A DNA stretch of 42,627 nt from a virus. The translations under genes and the position numbers were made by a program. The stretch lies in the UHGV virus genome UHGV-0123675; one strand, given 5' to 3'. This document shows positions 1 through 38,904 of the stretch, one piece after another; positions within the stretch are counted from its first letter, which is position 1; the number at the start of each line of letters is the position of its first letter. The notes under the pieces were generated by a model. That model did not search any database. It had not been told where the DNA came from and worked only from the letters and a program-made list of their open reading frames with translations.

Positions 1-49
1 AGTTAGATAATACATATTAAACCCATGGAAATTATATGGAATTTTAAGA

Positions 50-868
50 ATGGAAATTCATGTGCCTATGGAAGTTGTTGTAAGCGATGGTGAGGAGAGA
101 TTCACAGAACTTGACTTTTATTACGGTTCAAAAGCACTTGAAGGTACGTCAGAAATAATTACTGTTCTAACAAATACTATTCTGAATCGTGAGGTGGTTA
201 CTAAAATCCCATCTATAGAAGGCATAGCTGCATCATTTCGTACCAGTTATGAAGGTTCTTTTAGACAACGTTTTATGCTCAAAATCACTGGTGATCAACA
301 GCGACAAAACTACACCTCCATTGGAGAAGGGGCATTTTTAGATGTAATGTCCTATTATCTTACAAGACCGTTATTAACGCCTTATGTATTTGAATACAGA
401 AGAGCGGCTAGGATTGTAGAAGAACTTCAGCCAGATTATAGATCATTAATGAAAAGACTCTATGGCCCTTTATTAAAACTTCATAAACCAATTGAAGAAC
501 AGAATTATACTGTGGAATTGAAGCGTAGAAGGACAAATCTGGTACGCTATGATCATTCTACATTAGAAAACTTAATCATTGAACGTGCTGATGAGGAGAG
601 GATTATAATTGATGCTTCTATCACAAGATTTAATCGCTTGACTGGTACTGGAAGACTCATACTAGAAGAAGACTCGGATTCTGTAAGTTTTGAACCTGCA
701 TTTCTTTGGAGAGAATTTCCCGCAGAACAAAAACGAAAATTGTCACGAAACTTAGATGTAAATACGGATAATGAAAACTTTACTCGGTTACGTCTAGAGG
801 TGACAACTATCAGAAATTTTCTTGGTGAAATCAAAAAATATAGTCTACATCGAGTTATAATGGATTAA
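50..868 (+). CDS. Hypothetical protein (272 aa), AT-rich cargo gene next to integrase
   Basis: Long ORF with uniform coding character, tightly coupled (stop/start 1 nt apart) to downstream ORF; no motif recognised by eye. Confidence 0.5.
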   Translation: MEIHVPMEVVVSDGEERFTELDFYYGSKALEGTSEIITVLTNTILNREVVTKIPSIEGIAASFRTSYEGSFRQRFMLKITGDQQRQNYTSIGEGAFLDVMSYYLTRPLLTPYVFEYRRAARIVEELQPDYRSLMKRLYGPLLKLHKPIEEQNYTVELKRRRTNLVRYDHSTLENLIIERADEERIIIDASITRFNRLTGTGRLILEEDSDSVSFEPAFLWREFPAEQKRKLSRNLDVNTDNENFTRLRLEVTTIRNFLGEIKKYSLHRVIMD

Positions 869-869
869 T

Positions 870-1604
870 ATGATTAGATATTTCGCATTCTTGGTTATAT
901 TTATTACATGGTTAGTTTATTTCTCGAAATTCTATCCTTGGAATGGTTTTCCAATTGACAAGGCTGAGTGGGGAACATTTGGTGACTTCGTCGGTGGGGT
1001 GACGAACCCTATTTTAACTTTTTTTACAATGGTTATGCTAATTAAGTCTATTAATTTGCAAAAAGAGGCTAATGACAGCATTATCAAACAAAATTCGCAC
1101 ATGCATGAAGTATCTGAAAGGCAGAAGGAGATGGATGACTTACGTTCTTTTGAATCATCATTTTATAGCCTTGCAGAAGTTTCGAGAAGAGAGTTTGATG
1201 CACTCAAAATAGTTGGAAGAAATAAAAAGGTTTACTCAGCAGCAGATGCAGTGGTTTACTTAGAGGGATATTTATTGAATGCTTGCAAGTCAAAAACTTC
1301 TAAAGAATTAACTGAGCAATTTTCTAAATTTGATACAGACTCATCTATGGCAATTTTCTCTGCTGTTCGAAGCTTTTATATTTTGTTTAAATTTACAAAT
1401 GAATCATGCCCTGATAATCATAAAGAAAGATACTATGAGATTGCTAATTACATCATGCCAGTTAAGTTTCTTCATCTGGTATGCTTAGCATACGTATTTG
1501 GGAATTGGAAAATAACTAACGATTTTGAGCGCTATGGTTTTTTCAAACGTAAAGGCTTAGATAAATATGTTTTTAATTTCACATGTGTGAAAAATTATTA
1601 TTGA
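870..1604 (+). CDS. Hypothetical membrane-anchored protein (244 aa; two N-terminal hydrophobic helices)
   Basis: ORF begins 1 nt after previous stop; N-terminus FAFLVIFITWLVYF and ILTFFTMVMLI are transmembrane-like; rest soluble, no recognised motif. Confidence 0.5.
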   Translation: MIRYFAFLVIFITWLVYFSKFYPWNGFPIDKAEWGTFGDFVGGVTNPILTFFTMVMLIKSINLQKEANDSIIKQNSHMHEVSERQKEMDDLRSFESSFYSLAEVSRREFDALKIVGRNKKVYSAADAVVYLEGYLLNACKSKTSKELTEQFSKFDTDSSMAIFSAVRSFYILFKFTNESCPDNHKERYYEIANYIMPVKFLHLVCLAYVFGNWKITNDFERYGFFKRKGLDKYVFNFTCVKNYY

Positions 1605-1609
1605 TTTAT

Positions 1610-2740
1610 TCAGTCTAAAATTATTTTTTTCCATTCTTTACCTCGATCATCGTGATAGCCAGCAGTTTGGTTTGGTGATTTATGTCCCAGTAATTTTTGG
1701 GTATCGACTCCCTGTGCTTCATAAAGCCTTTCCGCCAAAGACCGCTGTTCGTGAAATGTAGCAGGTGTCCCATTACCCCAATCAATTCTGGCTAAATCTC
1801 GTGCTTTACTGAAATTCATTGTCAATGTATTGGATTTAACTTGTGTGCCGCGTTCAGCCTGTGAAGTCGTACGAAAAAAATGTACAAGGTAAGGGCTGAC
1901 TGCATAGTCACGGCAGCGAGCTACAACATCGCGCAGGCTCCAGTTGATTGCATTCAAACGCAGGGAAAGAGGAATAGCTATTTTGCTGCCGGTTTTTTCC
2001 TGTTCGATATGCAGATGATCATCCCATATATCGCTAAATTTCATTTTGGATATGTCACCAAGACGTTGCCCTGTCACAAGGGCAAGCAGCATTGCGTTCC
2101 CCATATACTGTTGTTTCTTATCTGCAATATCGAAAATCTTCTGCCACTCTTCGAGACTAAGTCGTTGTCTGGTAATCTTGCGCCTGGGCTGTTTAGTAGC
2201 AAGGGCAGGGTTGTGACCAGGCGGCACTTCACCGTAGTGTTGGGCCTCTTTGAATACATCGATCAGCACTGAACGAACAACTTGTGCCATTCTTGGTTGG
2301 CCTGCAGATAGATACTCTTCAAGAATTTGAGCAATATCCCTGACATCAACAGAAGATATCAGCTTCATTCCCGCACGTTCTTTCAAAAGTGCAACTGGCT
2401 TGGCTTTTTGTTTATATGTATTCTCCTTGATATCACCTGAAGCTAATCGTTCCTCCTGAATTTTCCAGTACCGCTCAAGCCAGGTAACTGTAGTAATTGC
2501 CTTACCCTTACTGGTAGCAATTCGATCGCTTATAGCCAGTACCTGTCTTGAACGCTGCTCAGCAAGTCTCGCGTTCGCTTCAGTAGCAATTGCTTTAGCC
2601 TCAGCTTCATCAGTACCTAGACTGTGAAATTTCCCAGTTACAGGGTGCTTGTACCTCCAATACACTTTATTGACCTTACGACTGTATAGTGGATATAGGT
2701 TAGGTATTGATACATTATTTTTACGTGGTCTCGCAGCCAT
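1610..2740 (-). CDS. int: Tyrosine recombinase / phage integrase, lambda Int family
   Basis: Translation resembles lambda Int (N-terminal PNLY...YWRY..TGK arm-binding region; C-terminal HELRSL..LLGH...Y catalytic region); start taken at internal Met (MAARPRK) giving the classic 20-bp overlap with xis; the longer ORF runs to 2806. Confidence 0.9.
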   Translation of the reverse strand: MAARPRKNNVSIPNLYPLYSRKVNKVYWRYKHPVTGKFHSLGTDEAEAKAIATEANARLAEQRSRQVLAISDRIATSKGKAITTVTWLERYWKIQEERLASGDIKENTYKQKAKPVALLKERAGMKLISSVDVRDIAQILEEYLSAGQPRMAQVVRSVLIDVFKEAQHYGEVPPGHNPALATKQPRRKITRQRLSLEEWQKIFDIADKKQQYMGNAMLLALVTGQRLGDISKMKFSDIWDDHLHIEQEKTGSKIAIPLSLRLNAINWSLRDVVARCRDYAVSPYLVHFFRTTSQAERGTQVKSNTLTMNFSKARDLARIDWGNGTPATFHEQRSLAERLYEAQGVDTQKLLGHKSPNQTAGYHDDRGKEWKKIILD

Positions 2741-2966
2741 CGCTGAGGATCCTTTGCAATTTTGGTGAATCAGATTTCTTGATAACCGGCGCAGCAAGTT
2801 CTCCAACCAATTCCGCGTCCTCTCTCACTCTCCATAGCCTACCTTGCTTCATGGCTGGTGGAGAAAAGAGGTTTTGCTTAGCGTAACGGCGCAATGTCGA
2901 GACGCTAGGTGGATTACTTCTGTATTTATCAGTTGCCCATTCTTCAAGAGTTAACATCTGAATCAT
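2721..2966 (-). CDS. xis: Excisionase (lambda Xis-like)
   Basis: MLTLEEWA...PPSVSTLRRYAKQNLFSPPAMKQGRLWRV resembles lambda Xis (MYLTLQEWNARQRRPRSLETVRRWVRECRIFPPPVKDGREY); overlaps int 5' end as in lambda; true start may be Met at 2957. Confidence 0.75.
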   Translation of the reverse strand: MIQMLTLEEWATDKYRSNPPSVSTLRRYAKQNLFSPPAMKQGRLWRVREDAELVGELAAPVIKKSDSPKLQRILSDGCETT

Positions 2967-3354
2967 GCGTCATTCTCCATATAACCCAGCTGCACCCGGG
3001 TTTTAACATCAAATATTCGTACGGTTCTCCGCTGCCGTGTATACCGCTACTTTCAGCAGATTAAATCAGTTAACTTTTCCTACGACCCACGGCTTAGAAG
3101 TCCGTTGCTCTCTTTAAGCTAACATCGCAACTGGAAGCGCGCTCCGGTAGCTTTGGATTAACGGCTGACCTTATAGGTTAAGGGACAGAACGCGCTTTCA
3201 TGTTGAGCCTTGAAAAAGGCTGGCGGTTACCGGACAAACGGGAAAACACCGGGCCGCCAGAACAGGGAAGTATTTGTTATTGCTTTGGCCTGCTTTTAAC
3301 CACATCAGGCGCGGTGGTATCTTGGTGTTCTCACACAGCCAAGAAGGAAATAGC

Positions 3355-3609
3355 ATGCGCGGAGTCGTCGTTCATCATGAGCACCGTATCGGTTATATCG
3401 TTATCCGTGACCCTATGGGGGAGTTCACAGTTGCAGAGCTGCTCGGCGGATATGATGTTGAGAAAGGGCACGTCATATCCGGAGATCTCCATAGCCTCGG
3501 AGGCGAAACATTTCTGAATGAGACTGAGGATGAAGATATTGATGTTTTCGTTCAGGGTTATGGCATGTCTGAACAGCAATCAATTCTTATGATCCGACGT
3601 ACTCGCTAA
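3355..3609 (+). CDS. Hypothetical small protein (84 aa)
   Basis: ORF with AAGGA RBS 7 nt upstream of ATG at 3355; overlaps 3' end of convergent minus-strand ORF; no recognised motif. Confidence 0.3.
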   Translation: MRGVVVHHEHRIGYIVIRDPMGEFTVAELLGGYDVEKGHVISGDLHSLGGETFLNETEDEDIDVFVQGYGMSEQQSILMIRRTR

Positions 3610-3781
3610 ACCACTTACGAAACAGAGCACAGCTTTTTAACGTTGCGTTGCAGTAATCAACGGATATGACCTGTCCTTCAGCAAATGGCTGTAGGAGCTC
3701 TTCGTTAATCTGCAACCCTCGTTTTGCAGCTTGTTCTAAGTCTGCAATCTTCTCGAAAAGCGCTTTCGCATTCTTATCCAC
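3587..3781 (-). CDS. Hypothetical small protein (64 aa) in leftward early operon
   Basis: ORF preceded on minus strand by GGAG RBS; lies between cI and xis where leftward early genes are expected. Confidence 0.4.
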   Translation of the reverse strand: MDKNAKALFEKIADLEQAAKRGLQINEELLQPFAEGQVISVDYCNATLKSCALFRKWFSEYVGS

Positions 3782-3876
3782 TGACTATCTCCACACTTAG
3801 GCGAATCATCCGATTATTCATACGCCACTGGCGGCTACTTCGTGGGCGTCCTGCCTGTTCGCTGTTGATGAACAAA

Positions 3877-3940
3877 ATCTAACTTAACTTAGCTTTTAGA
3901 TCAAGGAAAAAAACCAAACTATTCTTAGCTTGATGTTAAG
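3877..3940. promoter_or_regulatory. Putative left operator/promoter region (OL-like) with CTTAGC/TTAGAT-type inverted repeats
   Basis: ATCTAA-N13-TTAGAT inverted repeat at 3877-3901 and CTTAGC...GTTAAG at 3921-3940 share half-sites with the cI-cro intergenic palindromes. Confidence 0.35.
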
Positions 3941-3958
3941 AGAAAGGTTAGAGGTGGG

Positions 3959-4585
3959 TTAAAGCTCGTACTGAACGCCTTTGACAACGCCAATGATCAG
4001 GCAATTACCGTTAATTGAAATGTTTGGATAGCGTGGATTTAAGGGAACTAAGAACTTTTGAGGCCCATCGATGACAAGTTTTTTTATAGTAGCCTCGTTT
4101 GTCCCATCAAGCCTGGCTACGACTATCTTTCCATGAAGTGGCTCTGCATCTGGATCTACTATGACTGTTGCCCCTTCAGGGATTGTCGGGAGGCCATTAG
4201 GGTTTGTCATCGAATCACCTTTAACCTCCAATGCAAAGGAGCTATCCCCTATCCGGAGTGATGTCTCTATCCACTTATCTACTTCGCTGAAAACTTCTGC
4301 TGCTTTACATTCTGTAAACTGTCCAGCCTGAACCCAGGATATCACCGGAATCCTTTGCATCTTGGTTATCAGATTGCCTTCAAATTCAGTGCCATAAAGT
4401 ATGTAATCAATTGAGGTGTTGAAATACTTTGCAAGTTTAGCTAGTGACTCGCCGCCTGGCACATTAACGTCTTTTTCCCAATACCCAACCGCCACATCAC
4501 TAACACCGCAGAACTTACCCAGTTCTTTCTGCGAGGTTTTGGTTATGCGCCTGAGAGCTTTGATGCGCTGACCGACAGTTTCCAT
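3959..4585 (-). CDS. cI: CI-type prophage repressor (N-terminal HTH, C-terminal S24 LexA-like peptidase domain)
   Basis: N-terminus QRIKALRRITKTSQKELGKFCGVSDVAVGYWE is an XRE-type HTH; C-terminus contains GDSM..G and downstream Lys typical of self-cleaving S24 repressors; divergent from cro-like gene. Confidence 0.9.
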   Translation of the reverse strand: METVGQRIKALRRITKTSQKELGKFCGVSDVAVGYWEKDVNVPGGESLAKLAKYFNTSIDYILYGTEFEGNLITKMQRIPVISWVQAGQFTECKAAEVFSEVDKWIETSLRIGDSSFALEVKGDSMTNPNGLPTIPEGATVIVDPDAEPLHGKIVVARLDGTNEATIKKLVIDGPQKFLVPLNPRYPNISINGNCLIIGVVKGVQYEL

Positions 4586-4687
4586 TTGAACACCATAAAT
4601 AAATTAAAAGGCTAAGCAATCTTAGTTTTTATTGACCAAAGTTAGATTGGTTATTAATATCTAATCAAACTTAGCTAAGGAGGCGTT
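4586..4687. promoter_or_regulatory. cI-cro intergenic region with three palindromic operator-like sites (OR-like)
   Basis: CTAAG-caat-CTTAG (4612-4625), TTAGAT-N11-ATCTAA (4642-4664), CTTAGCTAAG (4670-4679) between divergent repressor genes. Confidence 0.5.
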
Positions 4688-4915
4688 ATGACAACCGATG
4701 ATATTGAAAACTACTTCGGAAATACTGAGAAGGTTGCCGAATTTTTTGGAATCACAAGCGAGGCTGTTTACCAGTGGCGTAATAGAACTGGTCGTCTTAT
4801 CCCAAAAGGGCGTGCAGCTGAAGCAGCCTATCGGACCGGGGGGAAATTGGTTTTTCATCCCGACCTTTACGAAAAGGGTAGCGATGCTTCAGTAAAACTC
4901 AAACCACAGGAATAA
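4688..4915 (+). CDS. cro: Cro-like small HTH regulator
   Basis: 75-aa ORF divergent from cI, RBS AAGGAGG upstream; position and size typical of Cro. Confidence 0.65.
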   Translation: MTTDDIENYFGNTEKVAEFFGITSEAVYQWRNRTGRLIPKGRAAEAAYRTGGKLVFHPDLYEKGSDASVKLKPQE

Positions 4916-4925
4916 GGGGGGAGCT

Positions 4926-5477
4926 GTGGGTAACGAACCTATTTGGAAAGTCGAACGTCAGCCAGCCTGGCTGGTGGCGGCGATAAAAAAAACGATCACC
5001 GATCTACCTGGTGGTTATGCCGAGGCGGCGGAATGGTTGGGCGTGACAGAGAACGCATTGTTTAACCGCCTTCGTGTGGATGGGGATCAGATCTTCCCTA
5101 TGGGATGGGCGATGGTGCTACAGAAAGCCGCCGGTGTTAGCTACATAGCAGATGCGTTTTCTCGTCAAACAGATAACGGGATTCATATCCCTGGTGCAGC
5201 ACCAGAAACAGAGAACGAAGAAATTGGCTTAAAGCTGGCTGAGCTGGTGGGCAGGCTTGGGGATCTGGTCAACGCATACCGTCGATACATCGATGATGGT
5301 GTAGTTGATAAAGGGGAGTGGGACAGTCTGAATGAAATCGCCTACCAGTTCCGGGTAACGCTTATGACGTTCCTGAACCTGATTTCACGAGTTTATTGCC
5401 TTCCAGAAAAGAGTGACGCCCGCGAGTGTGCAGCTCCGGGCGCCTTGGCGAACAACTCTTCGAGTATGGAGAAATAA
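4926..5477 (+). CDS. CII-like regulatory protein (phage 186 CII / CP76-like, tentative)
   Basis: GTG start after GGGGGGAG RBS; AEWLGVTENALFNRLRVDGDQ...F segment resembles the HTH region of phage 186 CII-family proteins; position after cro. Confidence 0.5.
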   Translation: MGNEPIWKVERQPAWLVAAIKKTITDLPGGYAEAAEWLGVTENALFNRLRVDGDQIFPMGWAMVLQKAAGVSYIADAFSRQTDNGIHIPGAAPETENEEIGLKLAELVGRLGDLVNAYRRYIDDGVVDKGEWDSLNEIAYQFRVTLMTFLNLISRVYCLPEKSDARECAAPGALANNSSSMEK

Positions 5478-5482
5478 TCCGC

Positions 5483-5809
5483 ATGAGCAGTTTAACGGCT
5501 TTTAACCGTCTACCGCAACTCAGGATGATCCCGGTTTCGGGTACTCCGTGGTTTCGGTATGAACGCAGATTATCAAACCGCTGGGTTCCGTGTAACCACA
5601 GTAGGGCGGTTTCAATTGTGGGGGGCTACAACCGGAGGGCAAAACGCCTGTGCGCGAACTTAACCGAAGGTTCAAAGACCACCGTGGAGTGCCAGTCCGT
5701 GTTATCCGCTGGGAGCCAGAAACACAGCGCGTTATCTATCTGCGAGATGGCTACCCGCACGAATGTTTCAGCCCACTTGAGCAATTCAGGCAGAAGTTCA
5801 GGGAGATAA
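5483..5809 (+). CDS. Hypothetical protein (109 aa), uncertain coding
   Basis: ORF packed between CII-like stop and replication gene start, but low-complexity S/R-rich translation; could be non-coding. Confidence 0.3.
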   Translation: MSSLTAFNRLPQLRMIPVSGTPWFRYERRLSNRWVPCNHSRAVSIVGGYNRRAKRLCANLTEGSKTTVECQSVLSAGSQKHSALSICEMATRTNVSAHLSNSGRSSGR

Positions 5810-5818
5810 CGGACGATC

Positions 5819-6676
5819 ATGAGCACTAAATTAACCGGCTACGTATGGGATGGTTGCGCGGCGTCGGGCATGAAGTTGTCTAGTGTCGCGATCATGGCTC
5901 GCCTTGCTGATTTCAGCAGCGATGAAGGTGTGTGCTGGCCGTCCATTGAAACTATTGCTCGCCAGCTTGGCGCAGGGCCGAGCACTATCAGAACGGCAAT
6001 CGCAAAGCTTGAAAAAGATGGCTGGCTCACGCGCACACAGCGCCGTAATGGTAACCGTAATGCTTCGAACGTGTACCGCCTGAATGTGGCGAAACTTCAG
6101 GCTGCCGCATTTTCTCAACTGTCAGATTCTGACACGTCAAAATCTGACGCATCAAATTTTGACGCCTCAAAAACTGACCCGTCGAAATCTGGCAAAAATG
6201 GCGGTTTTGACCCGTCAGAATCTGGCGGGGATCCGTCAGTAAAATCAACACAAGATCCACAAGTAAGTTCAAAACCCTCTTGTCCGGTTGCGGCGCAACC
6301 AGACCCTGAAGTTGTGATTACCGACCAGGCAATTTTGGTTCTGACCCATTTGAACAAGATCAGCGGATCCCGGTATCAGAAATCCAAAACATCCCTAGAG
6401 AATATCCGCGCCCGACTGCGTGAGGGATACAGCGTTGCAGACCTGCAACTTGTTATCGACCTGAAGCATGAGCACTGGCACGAGAACGACGAGCAGTACC
6501 AGTACATGCGGCCGGAAACGCTGTTTGGCCCGAAGAAATTCGAAAGCTATCTGCAAAGCGCTACCCGCTGGAATCAGAAGGGACGGCCTAAACGCGCTGA
6601 CTGGGGGGCGAAAAAGCGCGATGTGATGGCTTTAGGTCCGGTTGATACAACGATTCCTGCGGGGTTCAGAGGATGA
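5819..6676 (+). CDS. Replication initiator (lambda O-like: N-terminal winged-helix DNA-binding domain, conserved phage C-terminal domain)
   Basis: N-terminal ARLADFSSDEGVCWPSIETIARQLG..STIRTAIAKLEKDGWL is winged-helix like; C-terminus YMRPETLFGPKKFESY matches the conserved phage replication-protein C-terminus; internal iterons. Confidence 0.8.
   Translation: MSTKLTGYVWDGCAASGMKLSSVAIMARLADFSSDEGVCWPSIETIARQLGAGPSTIRTAIAKLEKDGWLTRTQRRNGNRNASNVYRLNVAKLQAAAFSQLSDSDTSKSDASNFDASKTDPSKSGKNGGFDPSESGGDPSVKSTQDPQVSSKPSCPVAAQPDPEVVITDQAILVLTHLNKISGSRYQKSKTSLENIRARLREGYSVADLQLVIDLKHEHWHENDEQYQYMRPETLFGPKKFESYLQSATRWNQKGRPKRADWGAKKRDVMALGPVDTTIPAGFRG
6124..6240 (+). repeat. Tandem ~15-bp direct repeats (iteron-like putative origin) inside the replication initiator gene
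   Basis: ATTCTGACACGTCAA / AATCTGACGCATCAA / ATTTTGACGCCTCAA / AAACTGACCCGTCGA and more degenerate copies; encode an S/D-rich linker. Confidence 0.6.
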
Positions 6677-7992
6677 CGTTAAACAAATATTGCCAGGCGC
6701 TGGCTGCACTACGTAGCCAACCAGCCCACGAATTGAAAGAAGTTGGCGATCAGTGGCGGACACCGGATCTGCTTTTCTGGGGTATCAACGCGCTATTTGG
6801 TCCATTAGTTCTGGACTTGTTTGCTGACGACGACAACGCGAAGTGCCCGGCATGGTACACCGCCGAAGATAATGCACTGACACAGGACTGGTCTGAACGT
6901 CTGGCAGAACTGGGCGGTGCAGGTTATGGCAACCCACCGTATAGCCGTTCGCAGTACCACGAGAAACAGGCGATCACCGGCATGACGCACATGATGAACT
7001 ACGCAGCAGCCCAGCGCGAAAAGGGCGGTCGCTATGTATTCCTGATAAAAGCTGCGCCGAGCGAAACGTGGTGGCCGGAAGATGCCGATCACATTGTATT
7101 CATCCGCGGGCGCATTGGGTTCGATCTGCCAGTGTGGTTTGTACCTGCTGACGAAAAACAAAAACCCACCAGCGCGTTTTTTGCCGGTGCCATAGCTGTA
7201 TTCGATAAGTCATGGCGTGGCGAGCGGTTCAGCTATATCAACCGTACAGAACTGGAGGCAAAAGGGCGTGCGTTTATGGCTTTGGCACAATTTGCTGCCA
7301 GCAAACCTCAACCAGCAACGTCCACACCAACAGTAGCCGGTAAGCCAGAAACAGAGTTGCCACTCACCCAGAACGATATTTTTGATATCAGCGGTGTCGA
7401 AGCGTGGGCATGTGTTAGAGCTGCGTTCGGCGATAAAGAGGAATACACATTCAGTGAATCGAAGTTTGGGCATACCTGGGCGGCGGATTCTGTCGAAGCA
7501 CCGGAATTCACTCAGGTATCACCATTAACGATCGACAAAGCGAAGCTGCTTATTCGTGAGAGTATTTTGTTCGGTGTGGATGAGTGGCTGTTGTCGATTC
7601 AATTCGATGACGCTGCTGCGCGCCTGGATATGTCGGAACGTATTCGCACTGTTGCCCTTGAAGCATCCGGTGAATATGGCATGAACAGTGCTGATTTCAT
7701 TGCAGCTATGGGAAGCCTGGATGTTTCCAGTTGGTCCAATATTCGCCACATCCGCATGCACATCCGTGAGAAAGCTAAACCAGTGGCGGATCCGCTTCCC
7801 GAGTCCCGTATCTGGTCGTTGGAGGTTGGAATTGTATTCGACCAGGTTGATGGCGCTGACATGCTGAATGAATCACAGCAGAACAAGCTGAAAGCCAACA
7901 TCAATCAACTCTGGCTGGAACGAACGGCCACCAGCGAAATTATCACAATTGCGCGTGGTCTTGTTCGCAATATGCGGGGAGTAGCCGCGTGA
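6673..7992 (+). CDS. Phage Dam-family N6-adenine DNA methyltransferase fused to a ~250-aa C-terminal domain of unknown function
   Basis: N-terminal WRTPDLLF...LDLFADDDNAKCPAWYT..NAL..DW...YGNPPYS is the phage Dam-type signature with NPPY catalytic motif. Confidence 0.8.
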   Translation: MTLNKYCQALAALRSQPAHELKEVGDQWRTPDLLFWGINALFGPLVLDLFADDDNAKCPAWYTAEDNALTQDWSERLAELGGAGYGNPPYSRSQYHEKQAITGMTHMMNYAAAQREKGGRYVFLIKAAPSETWWPEDADHIVFIRGRIGFDLPVWFVPADEKQKPTSAFFAGAIAVFDKSWRGERFSYINRTELEAKGRAFMALAQFAASKPQPATSTPTVAGKPETELPLTQNDIFDISGVEAWACVRAAFGDKEEYTFSESKFGHTWAADSVEAPEFTQVSPLTIDKAKLLIRESILFGVDEWLLSIQFDDAAARLDMSERIRTVALEASGEYGMNSADFIAAMGSLDVSSWSNIRHIRMHIREKAKPVADPLPESRIWSLEVGIVFDQVDGADMLNESQQNKLKANINQLWLERTATSEIITIARGLVRNMRGVAA

Positions 7993-8375
7993 AACTGCTC
8001 CTGCCTTTTCCCCCGAGCGTGAACACTTACTGGCGCGCCCCTAACAAGGGGCCGCTAGCCGGTCGTCACCTCATTAGCGCTGATGGCCGTAAATACCAGA
8101 GCGCTGCCTGCGTGGCAATCATTGAGCAATTACGACGCCTTCCAAAGCCATCGACTGAACTTGCAGCGGTAGAAATCACCCTGTACCCGCCGGATGCGCG
8201 CCGCCGGGATATCGATAATTACAACAAAGCCCTGTTTGACGCGCTGACGCATGCGGGTGTCTGGGAAGACGACAGCCAGATTAAGCGCATGCTGGTGGAA
8301 TGGGGACCCGTTGTGCCGAAAGGTCGGGTAGAGATAACGATCAGCAGATATGAACCGGCGGGTGCAGCCGCCTGA
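7989..8375 (+). CDS. rusA: Holliday-junction resolvase RusA
   Basis: GTG start overlapping upstream stop; LPFPPSVNTYW...DARRRDIDNYNKALFDALT..GVWEDDSQI matches RusA family. Confidence 0.9.
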   Translation: MKLLLPFPPSVNTYWRAPNKGPLAGRHLISADGRKYQSAACVAIIEQLRRLPKPSTELAAVEITLYPPDARRRDIDNYNKALFDALTHAGVWEDDSQIKRMLVEWGPVVPKGRVEITISRYEPAGAAA

Positions 8376-8388
8376 TATGGAGAAAAGT

Positions 8389-9072
8389 ATGAGCCAATTA
8401 GCAACAACAGCATTAACCATGTCCAGCAGCGATATTGCTGAGCTGGTGGAATCACGACATGACCATGTTAAACGGTCCATTGAACGCCTGGCAGAGCGCG
8501 GTGTTATTGAACTCCCCCCAATGGGGGAAGTTAAAAATCACCTCAATCAGTCGGTATCGGTTTATCTGATAGGGAAGCGGGACAGTTATATCGTTGTCGC
8601 GCAGCTGTCGCCGGAGTTTACCGCGCGTCTGGTTGATCGCTGGCAGGAGCTTGAGCAGGCACAGCAGCAGACGATTCCTCAATCATTCTCTGAAGCCCTA
8701 CGTCTTGCAGCTGACCTTGCAGAACAAAAACAGCAGTTGACTAACGAACTGGCTGCCGCGGCGCCGAAGGTAGCGTTTGTTGATCGGTACTGTACAGCCA
8801 GTGGGTCAATGTCATTCCGCCAGGTGGCAAAACTGCTTAAGGCCAAAGAGCCAGATCTGCGGTTATTCCTCCTTGAGAACGACATCATGTATCGCCTTGG
8901 CGGAACGATGACCCCACGGCATCAGCATATTGATGCGGGCCGTTTTGAAGTGAAAACCGGCACATCCGTAACCTCAAATCATGCATTCAGCCAGGCACGT
9001 TTCACGGCGAAAGGCGTGCGCTGGATTGGTGGACTGTGGGCAGAACACATTGCCAGGGGGCAGGTCGCGTGA
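8389..9072 (+). CDS. Antirepressor-like protein (Rha N-terminal domain plus KilA-C/ANT-type C-terminal domain)
   Basis: SSDIAELVESRHDHVKRSIERL is Rha-like; C-terminal FRQVAKLL...region resembles antirepressor KilAC; GGAG RBS before ATG 8389. Confidence 0.75.
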   Translation: MSQLATTALTMSSSDIAELVESRHDHVKRSIERLAERGVIELPPMGEVKNHLNQSVSVYLIGKRDSYIVVAQLSPEFTARLVDRWQELEQAQQQTIPQSFSEALRLAADLAEQKQQLTNELAAAAPKVAFVDRYCTASGSMSFRQVAKLLKAKEPDLRLFLLENDIMYRLGGTMTPRHQHIDAGRFEVKTGTSVTSNHAFSQARFTAKGVRWIGGLWAEHIARGQVA

Positions 9073-10064
9073 GAGCTCTGCTTACCCCCGAGATCGCCCA
9101 TCGTATGGGGATTGTGCTGTTCCGTCCCGGTGCGGAACTGATGCACCTCTTCATGCGTGGTCGCGTTTTGCTCGAGCCTGAACCAGAAGAAATGGCGTCA
9201 TTCAGTACCGGGGCTGTTCCGGCAGCCATTCAGCCGCTGGCTGATGATCCGGTAATGCGTCAGGTCTTCGAGAATGAGAGGGTTATTCAGCGTGCCGGTG
9301 GGCTTCCTTCCCTTGAGCAATGGTTGAGTAATCGGTTTGAATGCCAGTGGCCACATTCAACGTGGCACGACAAGAACTTCACAACAATGCGGCACCCACC
9401 AGGAAGTATTCGCCTGTGCTGGCATTGCGATCACACTTTGTCGGGGCAGCATACCGAACAGCTTGCAGGTATAGCGGCAGGAAACCTGGTATCCTGGATT
9501 CTGGAAGTCATTCGGCGTGATTCTGGTTTTCCCGAGTCGCATATCCTGACGCTTCCGGAACTGTGCTGGTGGATGGTCAGAAACGACCTGGCTGATGTTA
9601 TTCCGGAAAGCGTTGCGCACAAAGGGCTGCGCCTTCCGGATGAGAAGATCCGTTCTGTCATGAGGGAAAGCGACATAGTGCCTTCCTCGTCAGCAACCAG
9701 ACTCGTGCAGGAGAAGGCGAAGAAGATCCTCACGCTCTCTGTTGATCCGGAGTCGCCAGAGTCTTTTATGCTCAGGCCAAAACGTCGCCGCTGGATAAAT
9801 GAGACTTACTCCCGCTGGGTTAAAACACAACCCTGTGAGTGTTGCCGACGGCCAGCAGATGATCCGCACCATATCGTAGGGCACGGTATGGGGGGGACAG
9901 CAACAAAAGCCCATGACCTCTTCGTGATCCCTCTGTGCAGAGAGTGCCACGACGAGTTACACGCCGATGTACCGGCATTCGAGCAGAAGCATGGTACGCA
10001 GCTTGAGCTGCTACTGCGTTTTATGGATCGGGCGCTGGCGATCGGCGTAATTGCGACAGCTTAA
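9069..10064 (+). CDS. DUF968-like phage protein with C-terminal Cys/His (HNH-like) zinc-binding motif
   Basis: GTG start overlapping upstream stop; C-terminus CECCRRPADDPHHIVGHGMGG...CRECHDELH; nin-region position before Q. Confidence 0.55.
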   Translation: MRALLTPEIAHRMGIVLFRPGAELMHLFMRGRVLLEPEPEEMASFSTGAVPAAIQPLADDPVMRQVFENERVIQRAGGLPSLEQWLSNRFECQWPHSTWHDKNFTTMRHPPGSIRLCWHCDHTLSGQHTEQLAGIAAGNLVSWILEVIRRDSGFPESHILTLPELCWWMVRNDLADVIPESVAHKGLRLPDEKIRSVMRESDIVPSSSATRLVQEKAKKILTLSVDPESPESFMLRPKRRRWINETYSRWVKTQPCECCRRPADDPHHIVGHGMGGTATKAHDLFVIPLCRECHDELHADVPAFEQKHGTQLELLLRFMDRALAIGVIATA

Positions 10065-10081: not shown

Positions 10082-10447
10082 ATGCGTGATATTCAGATGG
10101 TTTTAGATCGCTGGGGGGGCTGGGCATCAGCTGATAATTCTGGTGTTGACTATTCCCATATTGCCGCTGGCTTCAAGGGACTTTTACCGCAGACAAGCAA
10201 AACCAGATTGTCATGTACAGATGATGATGCGCTTATCATCGAAGGTTGCCTAGCACGACTAAAAAGCCGAAAGCCATATGAGCATTCGCTTCTTGTCGCT
10301 CATTACCTGTACGGTATCTCGAAGAGGAAGATAGCTAAAGCGCGAAAGAAGGATGAGAAACTGATACGAATTGAGATACAGATGGCTGAGGGGTTTATTG
10401 ATGGTTGCCTCTCGATGCTAGATATTCGGCTAGAAATGGATTTATAG
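10082..10447 (+). CDS. Q: Late-gene antitermination protein Q
   Basis: MRDIQMVLDRWGGWA...IAAGFKGL...DDDALIIEGCLARLK...AEGFIDGCLSMLD pattern typical of the ~120-aa Q family of enterobacterial lambdoid prophages; located before lysis region. Confidence 0.75.
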   Translation: MRDIQMVLDRWGGWASADNSGVDYSHIAAGFKGLLPQTSKTRLSCTDDDALIIEGCLARLKSRKPYEHSLLVAHYLYGISKRKIAKARKKDEKLIRIEIQMAEGFIDGCLSMLDIRLEMDL

Positions 10448-10453: not shown

Positions 10454-10482
10454 AAAAAAGCGGGTTTTAATCCGCTTTTTTG
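10454..10482. terminator. Bidirectional rho-independent terminator between Q and the convergent cargo operon
   Basis: AAAAAAGCGG-gttttaat-CCGCTTTTTT: GC stem flanked by A-run and T-run. Confidence 0.6.
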
Positions 10483-10979
10483 TTTAATGAATCTATGAAC
10501 TCTTTTGTTTTTTTATTATTTTCAGCTCGATGTAATAAGATGCTTTTGAATCGCTGTATTTCGCTATTTATAGAGCTGATAAAAAAGAAAGAATACAGTG
10601 AGGCCGCAATCCCTCCACCGCAGGATGATATGAAATACAAGTAACTCATTGAGTTTTTTGGTATGGCAAACATACCAATTGCTCCTGAAAAAGCAGCCAA
10701 GAGATAAAAAATAATTAAAAATGCGAGGTGTCTTTTTTTTATATCGATAATTGGTCGTAATCTTCTAAGTTCACTATCGGATAATGATATATTTTCGTCA
10801 GCTTCAGACACCTTGAAAAATGCTGCAATGCAATAGCTGAAAGGAAATGCCAGTAAGGTTATGAGTGACCATGGTGCAGAAGTACCACTTAAGTCGATTT
10901 TTTTGGAAGCAAAATAAAAAACAATAAAGCCAATAATAAAGGCGGAAAAGAATCTTAATATAAATTTAAAGAAACTCAT
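10467..10979 (-). CDS. Hypothetical small membrane protein (170 aa, about four predicted TM helices), second gene of cargo operon
   Basis: Four hydrophobic stretches (FSAFIIGFIVFYFA, LITLLAFPFSYCIAAFF, LAFLIIFYLLAAFSGAIGMFAI, ASLYSFFFISSI); 18 nt downstream of the 394-aa gene; AT-rich. Confidence 0.6.
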   Translation of the reverse strand: MSFFKFILRFFSAFIIGFIVFYFASKKIDLSGTSAPWSLITLLAFPFSYCIAAFFKVSEADENISLSDSELRRLRPIIDIKKRHLAFLIIFYLLAAFSGAIGMFAIPKNSMSYLYFISSCGGGIAASLYSFFFISSINSEIQRFKSILLHRAENNKKTKEFIDSLNKKAD

Positions 10980-10997
10980 CTCCGCCTCCCAATAAAT

Positions 10998-12182
10998 TTA
11001 GTTTTTAACTTTTACTTCTCCAGTTTGAACCTTTGAAGCTAACCATTTGTGCATTTGTAAATATAAGTCATTTTCATCAATAAGTCCATTATTATATTGG
11101 ACATTTATTTTTCCAGATAGTTTCAGATCGCTTCCTTTAATAACCCCTCCACCTTGTAGATTGATGCTGATATCTTCATCATCTAAATTCCGGAGTGATG
11201 TCGCCAAAGTATCGAGCACACGCTGTCCATCTTTATTTGTTTTTCGGAAATAAGTTATTTCTAAGTTGACTTGTAAATTTGACTCGTCAAGAGAATCTTC
11301 AAGTTGTAAATTATTAAACCATCCTTCACCAAAAGCGGCTTTCATTATATCACCGCCTTTTCCTGTAGGCATAAATTTAATCTTTTTGACCTTTTCTAAC
11401 GGTTCCCTAGTATTTACAGGAAGGTCAAGTGGGTCGCTAATGTTTTTTAAAGTTACAACGTCATTTGAATCTGCGTTTTTGATTGGTACACTTCCAAGAT
11501 TTATTTTCTTTACAGGGGACTCGTGCATTTTTCTTATGGTGTCCTCTGTCGGTTTATCTTGAAGGACAAGAAAATCATCACCATTAAAGATGTTGCCGAA
11601 TGAATGTATTAACCAATTCAGATGGTTTTCTATATCCTTAGTTCTAAGGGAAGATGATTGAACGATCATCACGTGATTGTCACGAATGCCAAAGTAAAGT
11701 ATTGAATCAACGAATTCTCTTGTTATTTTTTCTTTGTCATGTTCACTTATTGCATCATCTTCGGCTAGCTTTATCTGCTTCGAAGTTATAGCGTTGATGT
11801 CATAGTAATTGACATCATCAGCGATTGTCATAAGAGTTTGGCTTTTACCCTGCTCAAATAAAATAAGTTGTCCGAATAACACTGTTTTGAATGTACTGCT
11901 TCGGTTTACCATTCTGAAACCGCTGTTACTATCAGAAGGATTAATCTGCTCCCTGCGGGTGCTGACTTTGTGAGCAGTGCCATTCTCAGAAATTATTGAG
12001 TCAATGATCTGCTGAAGCGTTGCTGTGCAGTTAGGAATGACCGCGCGTTTATATTGAATGACCTTGCTGCGACTTTCTTTCATTAGCCTTGTTCCTTGTC
12101 TCGTGAACGTAACCATCTGATTAGGTTGATTTTGTTTTGTTGTAATCAACATGGCTAGTAGACGGTAACTGTCTGTAAACAA
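10998..12182 (-). CDS. Hypothetical protein (394 aa), first gene of cargo operon
   Basis: Long AT-rich ORF, no recognised motif by eye; sits in the Q-to-lysis moron hotspot. Confidence 0.6.
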   Translation of the reverse strand: MFTDSYRLLAMLITTKQNQPNQMVTFTRQGTRLMKESRSKVIQYKRAVIPNCTATLQQIIDSIISENGTAHKVSTRREQINPSDSNSGFRMVNRSSTFKTVLFGQLILFEQGKSQTLMTIADDVNYYDINAITSKQIKLAEDDAISEHDKEKITREFVDSILYFGIRDNHVMIVQSSSLRTKDIENHLNWLIHSFGNIFNGDDFLVLQDKPTEDTIRKMHESPVKKINLGSVPIKNADSNDVVTLKNISDPLDLPVNTREPLEKVKKIKFMPTGKGGDIMKAAFGEGWFNNLQLEDSLDESNLQVNLEITYFRKTNKDGQRVLDTLATSLRNLDDEDISINLQGGGVIKGSDLKLSGKINVQYNNGLIDENDLYLQMHKWLASKVQTGEVKVKN

Positions 12183-15168: not shown

Positions 15169-15436
15169 CCCATCGGCAACTTTAAATGCATTGCTTTGCG
15201 CTGGGGTAGTGCTGACCCTGATGTTTTATCGCCGTGGCGATTCGCGACATCGACCATGGATATCTCGCCTGGCGTGGCTGCTTACGGTCATCTACAGCGC
15301 AGTTCCGCTGGCATATCTGTGCGGTATCTACCCTTATTCATCGTGGGCCACTATCGGGGCCAACATTATTTTCCTGTCTGTGCTGGTCGCCGTCAGAGGC
15401 AACGTGGCACGCCTGGTTGATCATCTGAGGCAATAA
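15155..15436 (+). CDS. Holin/antiholin-like small membrane protein
   Basis: 93-aa protein with 2-3 hydrophobic helices between holin and endolysin, overlapping both. Confidence 0.45.
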   Translation: MVQNDPSATLNALLCAGVVLTLMFYRRGDSRHRPWISRLAWLLTVIYSAVPLAYLCGIYPYSSWATIGANIIFLSVLVAVRGNVARLVDHLRQ

Positions 15437-16053
15437 TGAACCAATCACAATTTCAGCAGGCGGCTGGTATCAGCGCCGGGCTTTCTGCACGCTGGTTTCC
15501 GCACATTGATGCGGCAATGAAAGAGTTTGGAATCACAGCAGTTAACGATCAGGCCATGTTCATTGCACAAGTTGGGCATGAATCTGCTGGTTTTACCTCG
15601 TTGGTCGAGAGCTTCAACTACTCGGTAGACGGGCTGAAGAAAACCTTTGGTAAACGCCTGACGCCGTATCAGTGTGAAATGCTGGGGCGTGTCGATAGTA
15701 AGCAGGTGGCCCACCAGCCGCAAATAGCCAATCTGGTTTATGGTGACCGCATGGGGAATAACAGCCAGGGTGACGGCTGGAAATATCGCGGTCGTGGCCT
15801 GCTTCAAATCACCGGTCGCGAGAACTACGCCAAATGCGGTGCTGCGCTGAAGCTTGATCTGATCAGCACACCAGAGTTGCTGACACAGGAGAAGCATGCA
15901 GCCCGTTCTGCTGCATGGTATTTCACATTACGTGGTTGTCTGATGTACTCAGGTGATGTTGTCCGTGTAACGCAGATCATCAATGGTGGCCAGAATGGAC
16001 TGGCTGACAGAAATAGTCGTTATAACAAAGCGCGGGCGGCGTTGCTGGTATGA
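15436..16053 (+). CDS. Endolysin, glycoside hydrolase family 19 (chitinase-like) type
   Basis: [10 protein letters not shown] ... [13 protein letters not shown] signature of GH19-type phage endolysins; between holin and Rz. Confidence 0.85.
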
Positions 16054-16583
16054 CAGCGGTCTTTGCTTTTGTTATGGCGCGGTGGAAAACAATCATTGTT
16101 TTGCTGATGTTGGCTGGTGCATTTCTTGCCGGGAACATCTGGAGTGAGCGGGACTGGCAAAAGAAGTGGGCTGACCGCGATAGCATGGAATCTTCACAGG
16201 TAGCGAACGCTCAGACTGCCGCACGCTGGATTGAACAAGGGCGCATAATTGCCCGTGATGAGGCTGTAAAAGATGCACAAGCACAAGCCGCTAAATCTGC
16301 TGCCACTGCTGCTGGCCTGTCTGCCACTGTTAGCCAGTTGCGCACCGAAGCAACAAAGCTTGCCGCCCGCCTGGACGCCGCAAAGCACACCTCAGATCTT
16401 GCCGCTGCCGTCAGAAGCAAAACAGCCGGAGCCAACGCAGGATTGCTTGCCAACATGCTCGGAGATATTGCAGAAGAAGCTAAACGTTATGCTGGAATCG
16501 CTGACGAGCGCTACATCGCTGGGATAACATGTGAACGTATTTATAAAAATTTACTTGAGACGAATAATCAGCAGTTAGAATAA
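16050..16583 (+). CDS. Rz: Rz-like inner-membrane spanin (i-spanin)
   Basis: N-terminal TM ([17 protein letters not shown]) followed by Ala/Gln-rich coiled-coil periplasmic domain; start overlaps endolysin stop (ATGA). Confidence 0.8.
16273..16527 (+). CDS. Rz1: Rz1-like outer-membrane lipoprotein spanin (o-spanin) embedded in Rz in +1 frame
   Basis: Signal peptide with lipobox LLASC, proline-rich mature part, entirely nested inside Rz. Confidence 0.7.
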
Positions 16584-36350: not shown

Positions 36351-36934
36351 TGGCTTTTAAAATGACCGATACCAACCGCGTTATTACTATTTACAACCTT
36401 TCATCAGCAACGAATGAGTTTATCGGTAAGGGGGATGGGTTTATTCCGGCTAATACAGGCTTACCTGCGTATAGTACTGATATAGCACCGCCAAAAGTGA
36501 AGGCGGGGTTCGTTGCTGTTTTCGATATTCAGACCAATAAGTGGTCGCAAGTAGAAGACCACCGGGGAGAGACCGTTTATGACATCAGCACAGGTAGACC
36601 CACTGTTATTGAGACGCTGGGGTCCCTGCCTGATAATGTTGTATCAGTGGCTCCCGAAGGAGGATATGTTAAATGGGACGGCACACAATGGGTTCATGAT
36701 GCAGAAGCGGAAAAAGCATTTTTTCAGGGACAGGCTGCGCAGGAAAAAGCAAACCTGTTGATGATTGCAACATCTGCTATTGCTCCTCTCCAGGATGCAG
36801 TTGATCTGGACATTGCGACGGAAGACGAATCGAAAGCACTTCTTGCATGGAAAAAGTATCGTGTAATGCTTAACCGAATTAACCCCGAAGATGCTCAAAA
36901 CATCATCTGGCCTGAATCTCCATTGCCCATATAA
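36350..36934 (+). CDS. Tail fibre assembly protein (Tfa chaperone)
   Basis: 194-aa protein directly after fibre gene with conserved C-terminal IAPLQDAVDLDIATEDE...WKKYRVMLNRI tfa signature. Confidence 0.85.
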   Translation: MAFKMTDTNRVITIYNLSSATNEFIGKGDGFIPANTGLPAYSTDIAPPKVKAGFVAVFDIQTNKWSQVEDHRGETVYDISTGRPTVIETLGSLPDNVVSVAPEGGYVKWDGTQWVHDAEAEKAFFQGQAAQEKANLLMIATSAIAPLQDAVDLDIATEDESKALLAWKKYRVMLNRINPEDAQNIIWPESPLPI

Positions 36935-36950
36935 CAGACTTAAGCAAAAC

Positions 36951-36978
36951 AATGCCGGGACTGATTAGAATCGGCATT
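36951..36978. terminator. Possible hairpin terminator between convergent tfa and HtrL-like genes
   Basis: AATGCCG ... CGGCATT 7-bp inverted repeat; loop long and T-run weak. Confidence 0.3.
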
Positions 36979-36998
36979 GTTCATACCTCAATTAAAAA

Positions 36999-37856
36999 TT
37001 ATTTACCTATAAGAGAGACCTTTAATCTTCTTAATAAAGTAATTACATCTTTCCTTCCGAATAGTTTAAACAGATTAAACCAGCGGTTCTTACCCAGGTA
37101 ATTTAGTTTTATTAATTTAGGGTTGTAATGATAGCACATTATAAAAAAACCCTGATCGTCATCAACTATATTATTTCTGAGTGTTTTTATTTGGCACTGA
37201 CAAACCAGTTTGTAAAACTCTTTCCATTTCTTTTGTGTTGCTACAATTGCCCCACCAATAATATAGGAACGATTGTTAATCATGTGGTCAAAAACCTGAT
37301 GGATAGTTTTGACGGCCAAGCCTTTTTTAACTGTAAAGAAATTTACTTTGTTGCGGTCAAATGGATAGTCCCATCGAGATAACCCTCTGGTTACGTCTGC
37401 ACTGCGACAGTAACCAAAGTCAACCCATGCAACCATATCATCATTCACAAGATTTAACTCTATAGCTCTGTTTACAAAATATGTTTTCAGATTGCAAACC
37501 AGTGCATAGTCTGGGGACCAGTATTCGGGGTTTATCAACTGGCGAGTTTCAAGTTTGCTTATGAACTCGTTATCTTTTTGAATCCGCGCAATTATTTTTT
37601 TGATGTGTTGAAATTTTTTATTAATATCTAAAGCCACTACAACAGTATTTTTCCCATTTCTGATTGCTTCAATTTTTGGTTTAAGTTCACTGGATGTGAA
37701 AATGACCATGTCATTATCCAATTCAGACAGATTTTCAAAGTACTGAATATAGGTATCAGCTGTTCTCTCTAAGTGAGGAGAGAAACCTTTATTACTCGTC
37801 CAGTCTCCTCGTCCTATATCGAAAAATGCTGTAACAATGGTAATAGATGAGTTCAT
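36999..37856 (-). CDS. HtrL/YibB-family-like protein (285 aa; tentative), AT-rich cargo gene
   Basis: N-terminus SITIVTAFFDIGRGDW resembles the conserved start of HtrL/YibB-family proteins; AT-rich, minus strand downstream of tail fibre genes. Confidence 0.5.
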   Translation of the reverse strand: MNSSITIVTAFFDIGRGDWTSNKGFSPHLERTADTYIQYFENLSELDNDMVIFTSSELKPKIEAIRNGKNTVVVALDINKKFQHIKKIIARIQKDNEFISKLETRQLINPEYWSPDYALVCNLKTYFVNRAIELNLVNDDMVAWVDFGYCRSADVTRGLSRWDYPFDRNKVNFFTVKKGLAVKTIHQVFDHMINNRSYIIGGAIVATQKKWKEFYKLVCQCQIKTLRNNIVDDDQGFFIMCYHYNPKLIKLNYLGKNRWFNLFKLFGRKDVITLLRRLKVSLIGK

Positions 37857-38342
37857 TTTTAAGCAATCCGTGTTTTATACCTATCCAATAACTACAAGAA
37901 TGTTGAATACATATTTTTTTTGATATCAGTCATATGGAAACATTCTATCAGTATCAACATGAGGCGGGAAGCATCATGTGATATTAAAACTTATAAGCAA
38001 CGGATGTACAAAATAACTGGTTGTGGCAAGGGATTATTTAATGGTGAATAATTTTCATTGGTATTATTTTTCTTGAAATTGTCGCTTTGTTCTAAGATAG
38101 GATAACAATAGGTTGCTGAATCATATCAAGCAGTGTTCCTTTGCCGATATTTTGAGTAATAACGGAAATCATTAAAGATGACCTGACTGGCCAATTGATG
38201 GTGAACCGTAACGAGAGTTGCCGCAACCACACCGTATGCAAGAGCATGATTGCGGCCGACTGGCGAACGTTCGATAGTGCGAGTATTGAATGATTGCCAG
38301 TCACGGCGGATTGTACTTAAGCAATATGACGGTTCAAGGCGT

Positions 38343-38585
38343 TTAATCTGAAACCAGCCACATTTCAGCCTCTTCAAACATTTCCTGAACAGTTCGGCTT
38401 ATCTGTTCCTTCTCATGCTTGCTGGCGTCAGTGTTGATCGCCGGCAGTGTCATCATCGGTTTAACCCGGACATCAGCATCGGGGAAGATCCGGTGAACCC
38501 TCTTGGTCAGTTCGCCCAAAATGATATCTTTTGCACCGGGCAGACCATCAAAATTCCTTTTGTCATAAACGAGTTCCACGAACAT
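38343..38585 (-). CDS. dinI: DinI-family DNA-damage-inducible protein
   Basis: 80-aa protein; ELTKRVHRIFPDADVRV ... EQISRTVQEMFEEAEMWLVSD parallels E. coli DinI (ELSRRIQYAFPD ... QRISEILQETWESADDWFVSE). Confidence 0.85.
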   Translation of the reverse strand: MFVELVYDKRNFDGLPGAKDIILGELTKRVHRIFPDADVRVKPMMTLPAINTDASKHEKEQISRTVQEMFEEAEMWLVSD

Positions 38586-38600
38586 TGATTATTGCTCCTT

Positions 38601-38620
38601 TACTGGATGGATATACAGTA
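38601..38620. promoter_or_regulatory. LexA-box-like operator (SOS box) between divergent dinI-like and UmuD'-like operons
   Basis: TACTGGATGGATATACAGTA matches the consensus TACTGTATATATATACAGTA at 17 of 20 positions (CTG-N10-CAG spacing), overlapping a second palindrome ACAGTAT..ATACTGT and a TATACT -10-like hexamer. Confidence 0.6.
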
Positions 38621-38902: not shown

Positions 38903-38904
38903 CC

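Follow-up and report, generated by a model that had tools for sequence, protein, structure and literature searches.

A candidate two-gene anti-phage module, joining a predicted OB-fold protein to an AbiC-like membrane protein, at the left end of a prophage

The virus genome UHGV-0123675, a stretch of 42,627 nucleotides (nt) referred to here as the window, begins with two adjacent genes that we call A and B. A encodes a soluble protein and B a membrane-anchored protein, and the pair lies next to the phage integrase gene int. We analysed this pair as a possible phage-defence module. The genes at the left end of the window are:

50-868, plus strand: gene A, 272 amino acids (aa), soluble, apparently a divergent member of the DUF7946 + DUF7947 family, proposed cytoplasmic sensor or regulator
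870-1604, plus strand: gene B, 244 aa, putative inner-membrane protein, AbiC-like, proposed effector
1610-2740 (called start), minus strand: int, lambda-type integrase with Arm-DNA-bind_1 and Phage_integrase domains, 86% identical to IntE of e14
2721-2966, minus strand: excisionase, 85% identical to XisE of e14

The TAA stop codon of A occupies positions 866-868 and the ATG of B starts at 870, which leaves a gap of 1 nt between the genes. Weak GGA triplets resembling Shine-Dalgarno sequences lie 9 nt before the ATG of A and 6 nt before that of B. The stop codon of int, at 1610, is 5 nt from that of B, so that int and B are convergent. G+C content (GC) is 0.35-0.36 over the first 2 kb of the window as compared with 0.50-0.57 in the structural region of the phage body; for the pair itself it is 0.343 versus 0.512 in the flanks. 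Coordinates and base composition thus agree with the first-pass annotation, which had described an AT-rich plus-strand pair with stop and start codons 1 nt apart. Relative to an 80%-identical copy in Escherichia coli O26, dN/dS was 0.05 for A and 0.04 for B (1.7-1.9 in an off-frame control), and full-length homologues could be traced down to ≈ 21-26% identity. Because of these low ratios and the distant full-length homologues, A and B qualify, at the level of sequence, as genuine genes under purifying selection and as more than chance open reading frames (ORFs). Judged by their arrangement, they are co-transcribed.

The contigs that encode an identical A protein belong to the Citrobacter freundii complex, and these were used to extend the window leftward. 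In the extended sequence, the isocitrate dehydrogenase gene (icd) ends 153 nt upstream of A and is followed by the icd terminator hairpin, an AT-rich spacer and then A. This is the intact icd junction that the first-pass annotation had proposed to look for on the left. The right end of the window contains the matching site:

42414-42623, plus strand: attR, a second copy of the icd 3' end (its last 164 nt and the terminator), with 94-96% identity to that at attL

Since attL lies in icd and a second copy of icd (attR) is present at the right end, the pair lies within the prophage, in the slot between attL and int, and does not belong to the host chromosome outside it. Nor did any homologue have a housekeeping role or context. 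The prophage is classified as e14-like and integrated in icd from the identity of Int and Xis to IntE and XisE and from the icd integration site. The placement of the pair directly beyond the 3' end of int, at the att-int junction as in e14, had been noted at the outset and is borne out by the icd attL and the similarity of Int to IntE. Its position inside the att boundaries, its low GC and the presence of other genes in the same slot of e14 are those of an accessory ('moron') insertion. In e14 the slot is filled by ymfD, ymfE and lit. The last of these, an established exclusion gene for a cell-death peptidase, converges on intE in the way that B converges on int. A and B showed no similarity to YmfD, YmfE or Lit by blastp (best E = 0.16 over 15 residues). 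By these comparisons, the pair is a different cargo from the e14 genes in the same hotspot, and the attL-int slot of icd-integrating e14-like prophages is a cargo hotspot in which exclusion or defence genes are exchanged. In locus L004 (CP101082.1), nucleotides 1-9898 were compared with window 15715-42627. Here window 36427-42627, consisting of the prophage right end and the icd fragment, runs straight into window position 1 and is itself preceded by a patchwork of other window segments. This arrangement indicates tandem or mosaic prophage copies at icd.

The spacer upstream of A contains a single plus-strand promoter-like site, TTGTCA-18-CATATT, which matches the consensus at 9 of 12 positions and, at L001 9940-9969 (window -11 to 18), straddles the window edge:

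13-18, plus strand: candidate -10 hexamer CATATT, sigma70-like, downstream of the phage-borne icd terminator hairpin

The first-pass annotation had placed the promoter of the pair outside the window. This applies to the -35 hexamer (TTGTCA), located 6-11 nt to the left of the edge, and not to the -10 hexamer. Such matches were no more frequent than in shuffled sequence, and we list the site as a candidate. On the opposite strand, L001 9864-9937 (minus strand; 14-87 nt to the left of the window) gave a sub-threshold Rfam match to the 3' end of the Hfq-binding small RNA STnc150 (40 bits, gathering score 60, E = 2e-6), antisense over the phage-borne icd terminator. At the other end of the pair, no terminator-like structure was seen between the ends of B and int (1604-1610). 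Transcription of A-B would therefore continue into int in antisense orientation, with a possible effect on how int is expressed in the lysogen.

Hydropathy analysis placed two hydrophobic segments in B, at residues ≈ 1-22 and ≈ 40-58. The AlphaFold2 (AF2) model of B (pLDDT 84.3) contains helices at residues 2-21 and 31-110, followed by a helical C-terminal domain (≈ 185 aa in all). Both results support the two N-terminal transmembrane (TM) helices and soluble C-terminal domain ascribed to B in the first-pass annotation, an architecture that B shares with AbiC. The distribution of charged residues (R3 at the N-terminal end; K59, K65 and K73 beyond TM2) weakly favours an orientation with both the N terminus and the C terminus inside. 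The most conserved motif of the superfamily is located at the start of the second helix:

969-1013, plus strand: motif WGTFGDFVGGVTNPI, aa 34-48 of B, at the start of TM2

B itself matched no family in Pfam, NCBIfam or PADLOC, and PHROGs assigned it to phrog_8999 (E = 1.9e-39). Its relationship to abortive-infection (Abi) proteins emerged from its most distant homologues. The weakest phmmer matches of B, P0069-P0072 (E = 3e-7 to 4e-5), carry the putAbiC domain PF16872. Comparison of the B family with these four PF16872 proteins by hhalign gave a probability of 99.7% (E = 4.8e-26) over 225 columns. Most of this signal was retained by the first 99 residues alone (99.6%, E = 4.3e-24), which comprise the TM hairpin, the WGTFGDFVGGxxNPI motif and the RSFExxFYSL helix; the C-terminal halves alone were co-linear over 121 columns and matched weakly (24%, E = 8e-4). 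The WGTFGDFVGGxxNPI motif is invariant in both alignments, is common to putAbiC-domain proteins and is kept in the plasmid-borne partners described below. In addition, residues 54-239 of P0072 aligned by tblastn to the E. coli homologue of B (E = 2e-4), and a hidden Markov model (HMM) built from the four PF16872 proteins matched every B-type partner (1e-18 to 1e-26). PF16872 itself, a C-terminal domain of 80 aa, gave no match at E ≤ 1 to B, to 21 family members or to six further B-type partners. We conclude from these profile comparisons that the membrane and juxtamembrane module of B is homologous to that of putAbiC proteins. The connection to experimentally defined Abi proteins is indirect and runs through P0072, which matches the PADLOC models for AbiC (E = 1.8e-6) and AbiP (E = 1.6e-3) as well as Pfam putAbiC (66.8 bits), and whose relatives on plasmids bear the annotation 'putative phage abortive infection protein'.

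Protein A has no TM segment by hydropathy. Its AF2 model (pLDDT 86.8, pTM 0.79) has two domains:

50-574, plus strand: N-terminal alpha/beta domain, DUF7946-like, aa 1-175 of A
584-856, plus strand: C-terminal domain with predicted OB fold, DUF7947-like, aa 179-269 of A

Pfam searches with A gave matches to DUF7946 (PF25678; aa 20-81, 14.9 bits) and DUF7947 (PF25679; aa 187-215, 14.1 bits), both below the gathering score of 27. In an alignment of the A subfamily, all 21 members matched DUF7946 and 16 of the 21 matched DUF7947, in the correct order and with all but one below threshold; the exception, P0010, clears the DUF7947 cut-off with 29.2 bits. A search with the subfamily profile against 1.84 billion representatives retrieved 271 clusters at 50% identity. 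Full-length members are ≈ 260-300 aa long, and the distant members that we sampled pass both thresholds (for example P0202, with 114.7 and 33.6 bits). Because the matches recur throughout the subfamily, one member passes the threshold and the profile reaches bona fide members, the similarity is not due to chance. By sequence, A thus belongs to the DUF7946 + DUF7947 family as a divergent member with the same length of ≈ 270 aa and the same domain order. PHROGs placed A in phrog_13337 (E = 6.5e-63), a group of unknown function. The first-pass annotation had recognised no motif in either protein, but the searches connect B to putAbiC, and A to DUF7946/DUF7947 with a predicted OB fold.

The C-terminal domain of the A model forms a beta-beta-beta-alpha-beta-beta barrel. 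As in an OB fold, five strands are present with a helix inserted after the third, and the domain is structurally similar to known members of this fold. Invariant residues of the family are concentrated on this barrel (TRFNxLTGTGR at aa 192-202, S211, S213, F214 and W220), and a second invariant set is found in the N-terminal domain (LDFYxGxKAxEGxxE at aa 21-35, and H145, P147 and E149 of the block H145-K-P-I-E149). The conserved aromatic and basic residues F194, R202, F214 and W220 would be compatible with binding of single-stranded DNA or RNA. OB folds also bind proteins, sugars and metals, and some of the top structural matches of the C-terminal domain bind metal or sugar (SilF, pertussis toxin). 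Among solved structures, none was related to A by sequence, and no structural relative of its N-terminal domain was found.

The pair recurs in a wide range of mobile elements. A immediately followed by a B-type gene was found in icd prophages of Citrobacter and Kosakonia and in Mixta theicola; in Klebsiella phage Kp4865-4 (35% and 39% identity), where it lies in the early/replication region; in a small, apparently satellite-like Pseudomonas element that carries genes for an integrase, DUF3987, a capsid protein and an S78 protease; in an integrative element of P. viridiflava (L010), adjoining an Mrr_cat gene and near a TIR protein gene; and on a genomic island of E. coli O26 with Ag43, DUF4365 and IS66. 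The E. coli copy is present in 82 of 5426 complete E. coli genomes (≈ 1.5%), including O26 and O103 Shiga-toxin-producing strains. Plasmids carrying the pair include the IncX1 plasmid pSTY1 (L026), with adjoining SLATT, HEPN and DqlB genes; a 6.1-kb ColRNAI (ColE1-type) plasmid (L027), on which, Rop aside, few genes are annotated and the pair is the largest of them; an Acinetobacter plasmid (L028), on which they lie between RelE/ParE modules; and plasmids of Photobacterium and Plesiomonas. In the Kosakonia and metagenomic icd-prophage versions, genes for Shedu (SduA_C), DndB, HipA_2 or KAP nucleoside triphosphatases are nearby (SduA_C in L011; DndB and HipA_2 in L012), and a DUF4365 gene is near the pair in L030.

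In all these cases the downstream partner matched the B HMM (1e-23 to 1e-129), while the identity of the A proteins went down to ≈ 21-26%. For ten pairs that were measured, the spacing between the genes ranged from an 11-nt overlap to an 11-nt gap, the commonest being a 4-nt overlap of the ATGA type. Across these ten pairs, the pairwise identities of A and of B were strongly correlated (r = 0.95; Mantel test, 0/5000). GC of the pair was below that of the flanks in all seven loci tested. On this evidence, A and B are almost always tightly juxtaposed or overlapping, and are inherited and diverge together across many unrelated mobile elements. B-type proteins are also found alone, for example in a Leptospira phage, much as AbiC occurs alone in Lactococcus. 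On a plasmid of Vibrio sp. HDW18 (L031, 2465-4363), an unrelated gene of 141 aa lies between an A-like gene and a truncated B-like two-TM protein of 121 aa (B HMM, E = 4e-5), in an array with VOC, GNAT and RelE/ParE genes that looks integron-cassette-like; the locus may represent a pair that has decayed or been split.

These contexts bear on the possibility that the pair is a toxin-antitoxin or addiction module, in which B would be a membrane toxin restrained by A, the benefit would be maintenance of the element, and phage defence would be secondary. The place of the pair among the few cargo genes of the ColE1-type plasmid, its position between RelE/ParE modules in Acinetobacter and near DqlB elsewhere, and the tight coupling of an upstream soluble to a downstream membrane protein would all fit such a module. 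On the other hand, A with its 272 aa and two conserved domains is much larger than typical antitoxins and has no recognisable DNA-binding or antitoxin domain, and integrated prophages and islands have no need of an addiction module. We consider this explanation unlikely; it overlaps with an Abi function and does not exclude it, since many Abi systems are formally toxin-antitoxin systems.

A role in the life cycle of the mobile element itself, such as membrane-anchored replication, packaging or the timing of lysis, would not be antiviral at all. It would accord with the location in Kp4865-4 and with the frequency of OB folds among replication proteins. The carriers, however, are unrelated (a lambdoid prophage, the satellite-like element, IncX and ColE1 plasmids, a genomic island) and share no common life-cycle machinery; the position of the pair varies within the elements; it is absent from e14-like prophages with 86% identical integrases; and few of the complete E. 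coli genomes carry it. Moreover, a lysis cassette of its own is present elsewhere in the window (ORFs 15436-16583), with counterparts in L004 that were called as Glyco_hydro_19 (a weak match) and DUF2514 genes. This makes a life-cycle role very improbable.

Distant members of the DUF7946 family were found with other neighbours. The sample was small and confined to members with usable contigs. Downstream of three canonical DUF7946 proteins, and of one more on a short contig, lies a conserved protein of 176-193 aa that has a single TM helix and matches DUF4760 weakly (E = 1e-3 to 6e-3). The coordinates of this DUF4760-like single-TM partner, with a mutual identity of 53-61%, are:

L023, 6858-7427
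L024, 6875-7405
L025, 6827-7396

This partner is not homologous to B (hhalign, 0.3%). The DUF7946 protein of L019 is followed by an unrelated multi-TM protein, and one DUF7946 protein has no membrane neighbour and adjoins an HExxH protein and a ParE module. As for the surroundings of the pairs with the single-TM partner, Mrr_cat and PLDc_2 genes adjoin the one in L023, and the one in L025 has an Abi_C gene at a distance of ≈ 3 kb. As distant DUF7946 proteins pair with other membrane proteins, the soluble A-type protein would be the constant part; this suggests a portable sensor module with an exchangeable membrane partner as the effector. In its broadest form, which we put forward tentatively and with some doubt, DUF7946-DUF7947 would be an unrecognised family of portable OB-fold cytoplasmic infection sensors with interchangeable membrane effectors (AbiC-like two-TM, DUF4760-like single-TM and others), together forming a new modular class of membrane-acting Abi systems across prophages, satellites, plasmids and islands of Proteobacteria and beyond. 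If so, the family would provide the first handle on the triggering of AbiC-type membrane proteins.

For the pair itself, defence or exclusion is the best-supported reading because of the link of B to putAbiC, the OB fold predicted for A, and the conservation of a mobile unit near defence and toxin-antitoxin genes. This is in line with the first-pass annotation, which had proposed a superinfection-exclusion or defence pair. We favour, with modest confidence, the view that A and B together make up an anti-phage module of the abortive-infection type, one that is complete in itself, moves horizontally and serves this prophage as lysogenic-conversion cargo. The e14 Lit slot, the low GC and the mobile accessory contexts, often near defence or toxin-antitoxin genes, also count in favour of an Abi function. 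The roles of sensor for A and membrane effector for B are the most likely division of labour, as inferred here. The pair remains a candidate and matches no curated defence model: none of the 5027 models of PADLOC-DB 2.0 matched A or B at E ≤ 1. In the literature searched, we found no paper covering the pair and no mention of DUF7946 or DUF7947.

In the mechanism that we propose, A would be a cytoplasmic sensor whose OB-fold domain recognises a product of phage infection, either single-stranded nucleic acid or one of its binding proteins. Recognition would lead A to activate or release B, whose N terminus and C-terminal domain would both face the cytoplasm. B would act at the inner membrane, probably by oligomerising via the Gly-rich WGxFGDFxGG motif of TM2, and would cause either a collapse of membrane function or a block to late phage development, so that no progeny would come from the infected cell.

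Alternatively, B could confer superinfection exclusion at the envelope by blocking entry of incoming phage DNA without killing the cell, with A as an accessory factor. B is a prophage-encoded membrane protein in a lysogenic-conversion slot, and its most conserved motif lies at the periplasm-proximal start of TM2; both would fit an entry blocker. Such blockers are usually single small membrane proteins, though, and a block at the membrane does not readily account for a conserved cytoplasmic OB-fold partner that co-evolves with B. The homology of B is to proteins of the Abi type and not of the superinfection-exclusion type, and the pair also occurs on plasmids and islands that have no specific relationship with a phage. 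An envelope block thus seems improbable, slightly more so than an addiction module.

If A-B is an Abi module, what would be new is that a membrane protein of the AbiC type has an OB-fold partner dedicated to it. A Gram-negative AbiC relative of this kind would be a tractable two-component version, in which sensing and killing are genetically separable. It would also give a first function to two Pfam domains of unknown function, represented by the clusters counted above, and would extend the known repertoire by a system that, going by PADLOC-DB 2.0, escapes present-day defence annotation.

Several other accessory genes were observed in the same prophage. An ORF of 364 aa adjoining attR (40827-41918, minus strand) matches the PADLOC candidate defence family HEC-08 (E = 4.1e-163) and DUF3644; beside it, ORFs 40008-40586 and 39564-39938 (both minus strand) have no Pfam or PADLOC match. 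Both ends of the prophage may therefore carry candidate defence cargo. A low-GC block (10467-12182, minus strand, 36-39%) contains ORFs of 170 and 394 aa right after an antiterminator-Q-like gene (10082-10447). Neither ORF has a Pfam or PADLOC match, and the block looks like another moron insertion. A gene of the HtrL_YibB family (36999-37856, minus strand, E = 9.2e-86) lies in an island of 34% GC after the tail-fibre region.

How does the pair compare with known systems? Lactococcal AbiC is described as having two TM helices and an extramembrane domain, as B has; it confers an Abi phenotype and lowers production of the major capsid protein (PMC13064643). AbiP has one TM helix and a nucleic-acid-binding domain, both of which are required (PMC13064643). 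Its coupling of a membrane anchor to nucleic-acid binding parallels the association of B with its OB-fold partner A. A review of 2026 groups the two proteins as 'AbiC/P', of unknown mechanism; AbiC was described in 1992, and its mechanism and trigger are still unknown (PMC13064643). The similarity between B and putAbiC proteins covers the first ≈ 100 residues of B, including the WGxFGDFVGGxxNPI motif. B differs from AbiC in that it matches neither PF16872 nor the PADLOC models for AbiC and AbiP, and in that the similarity in its C-terminal domain is weak. Each of AbiC and AbiP functions from a single gene, but B comes paired with A. The hosts of B are Gram-negative and its carriers are prophages, plasmids and islands, unlike those of lactococcal AbiC. 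As for A, the canonical DUF7946 + DUF7947 proteins that we examined are paired with DUF4760-like single-TM or other genes and not with AbiC-like proteins.

In layout, A-B resembles RexA/RexB of phage lambda and the RexAB-like Sucellos pair SclA/SclB, each being a prophage pair with a gene for a soluble protein of ≈ 270 aa ahead of one for a small membrane protein. The soluble partner of RexAB is the infection sensor, and its membrane partner brings about death through depolarisation (bioRxiv 10.1101/2024.07.02.601686). Tests for sequence or structural homology between RexA/RexB and A-B detected none. The nearest relatives by descent, as far as sequence can tell, are AbiC/putAbiC for the membrane module of B and DUF7946/DUF7947 for A.

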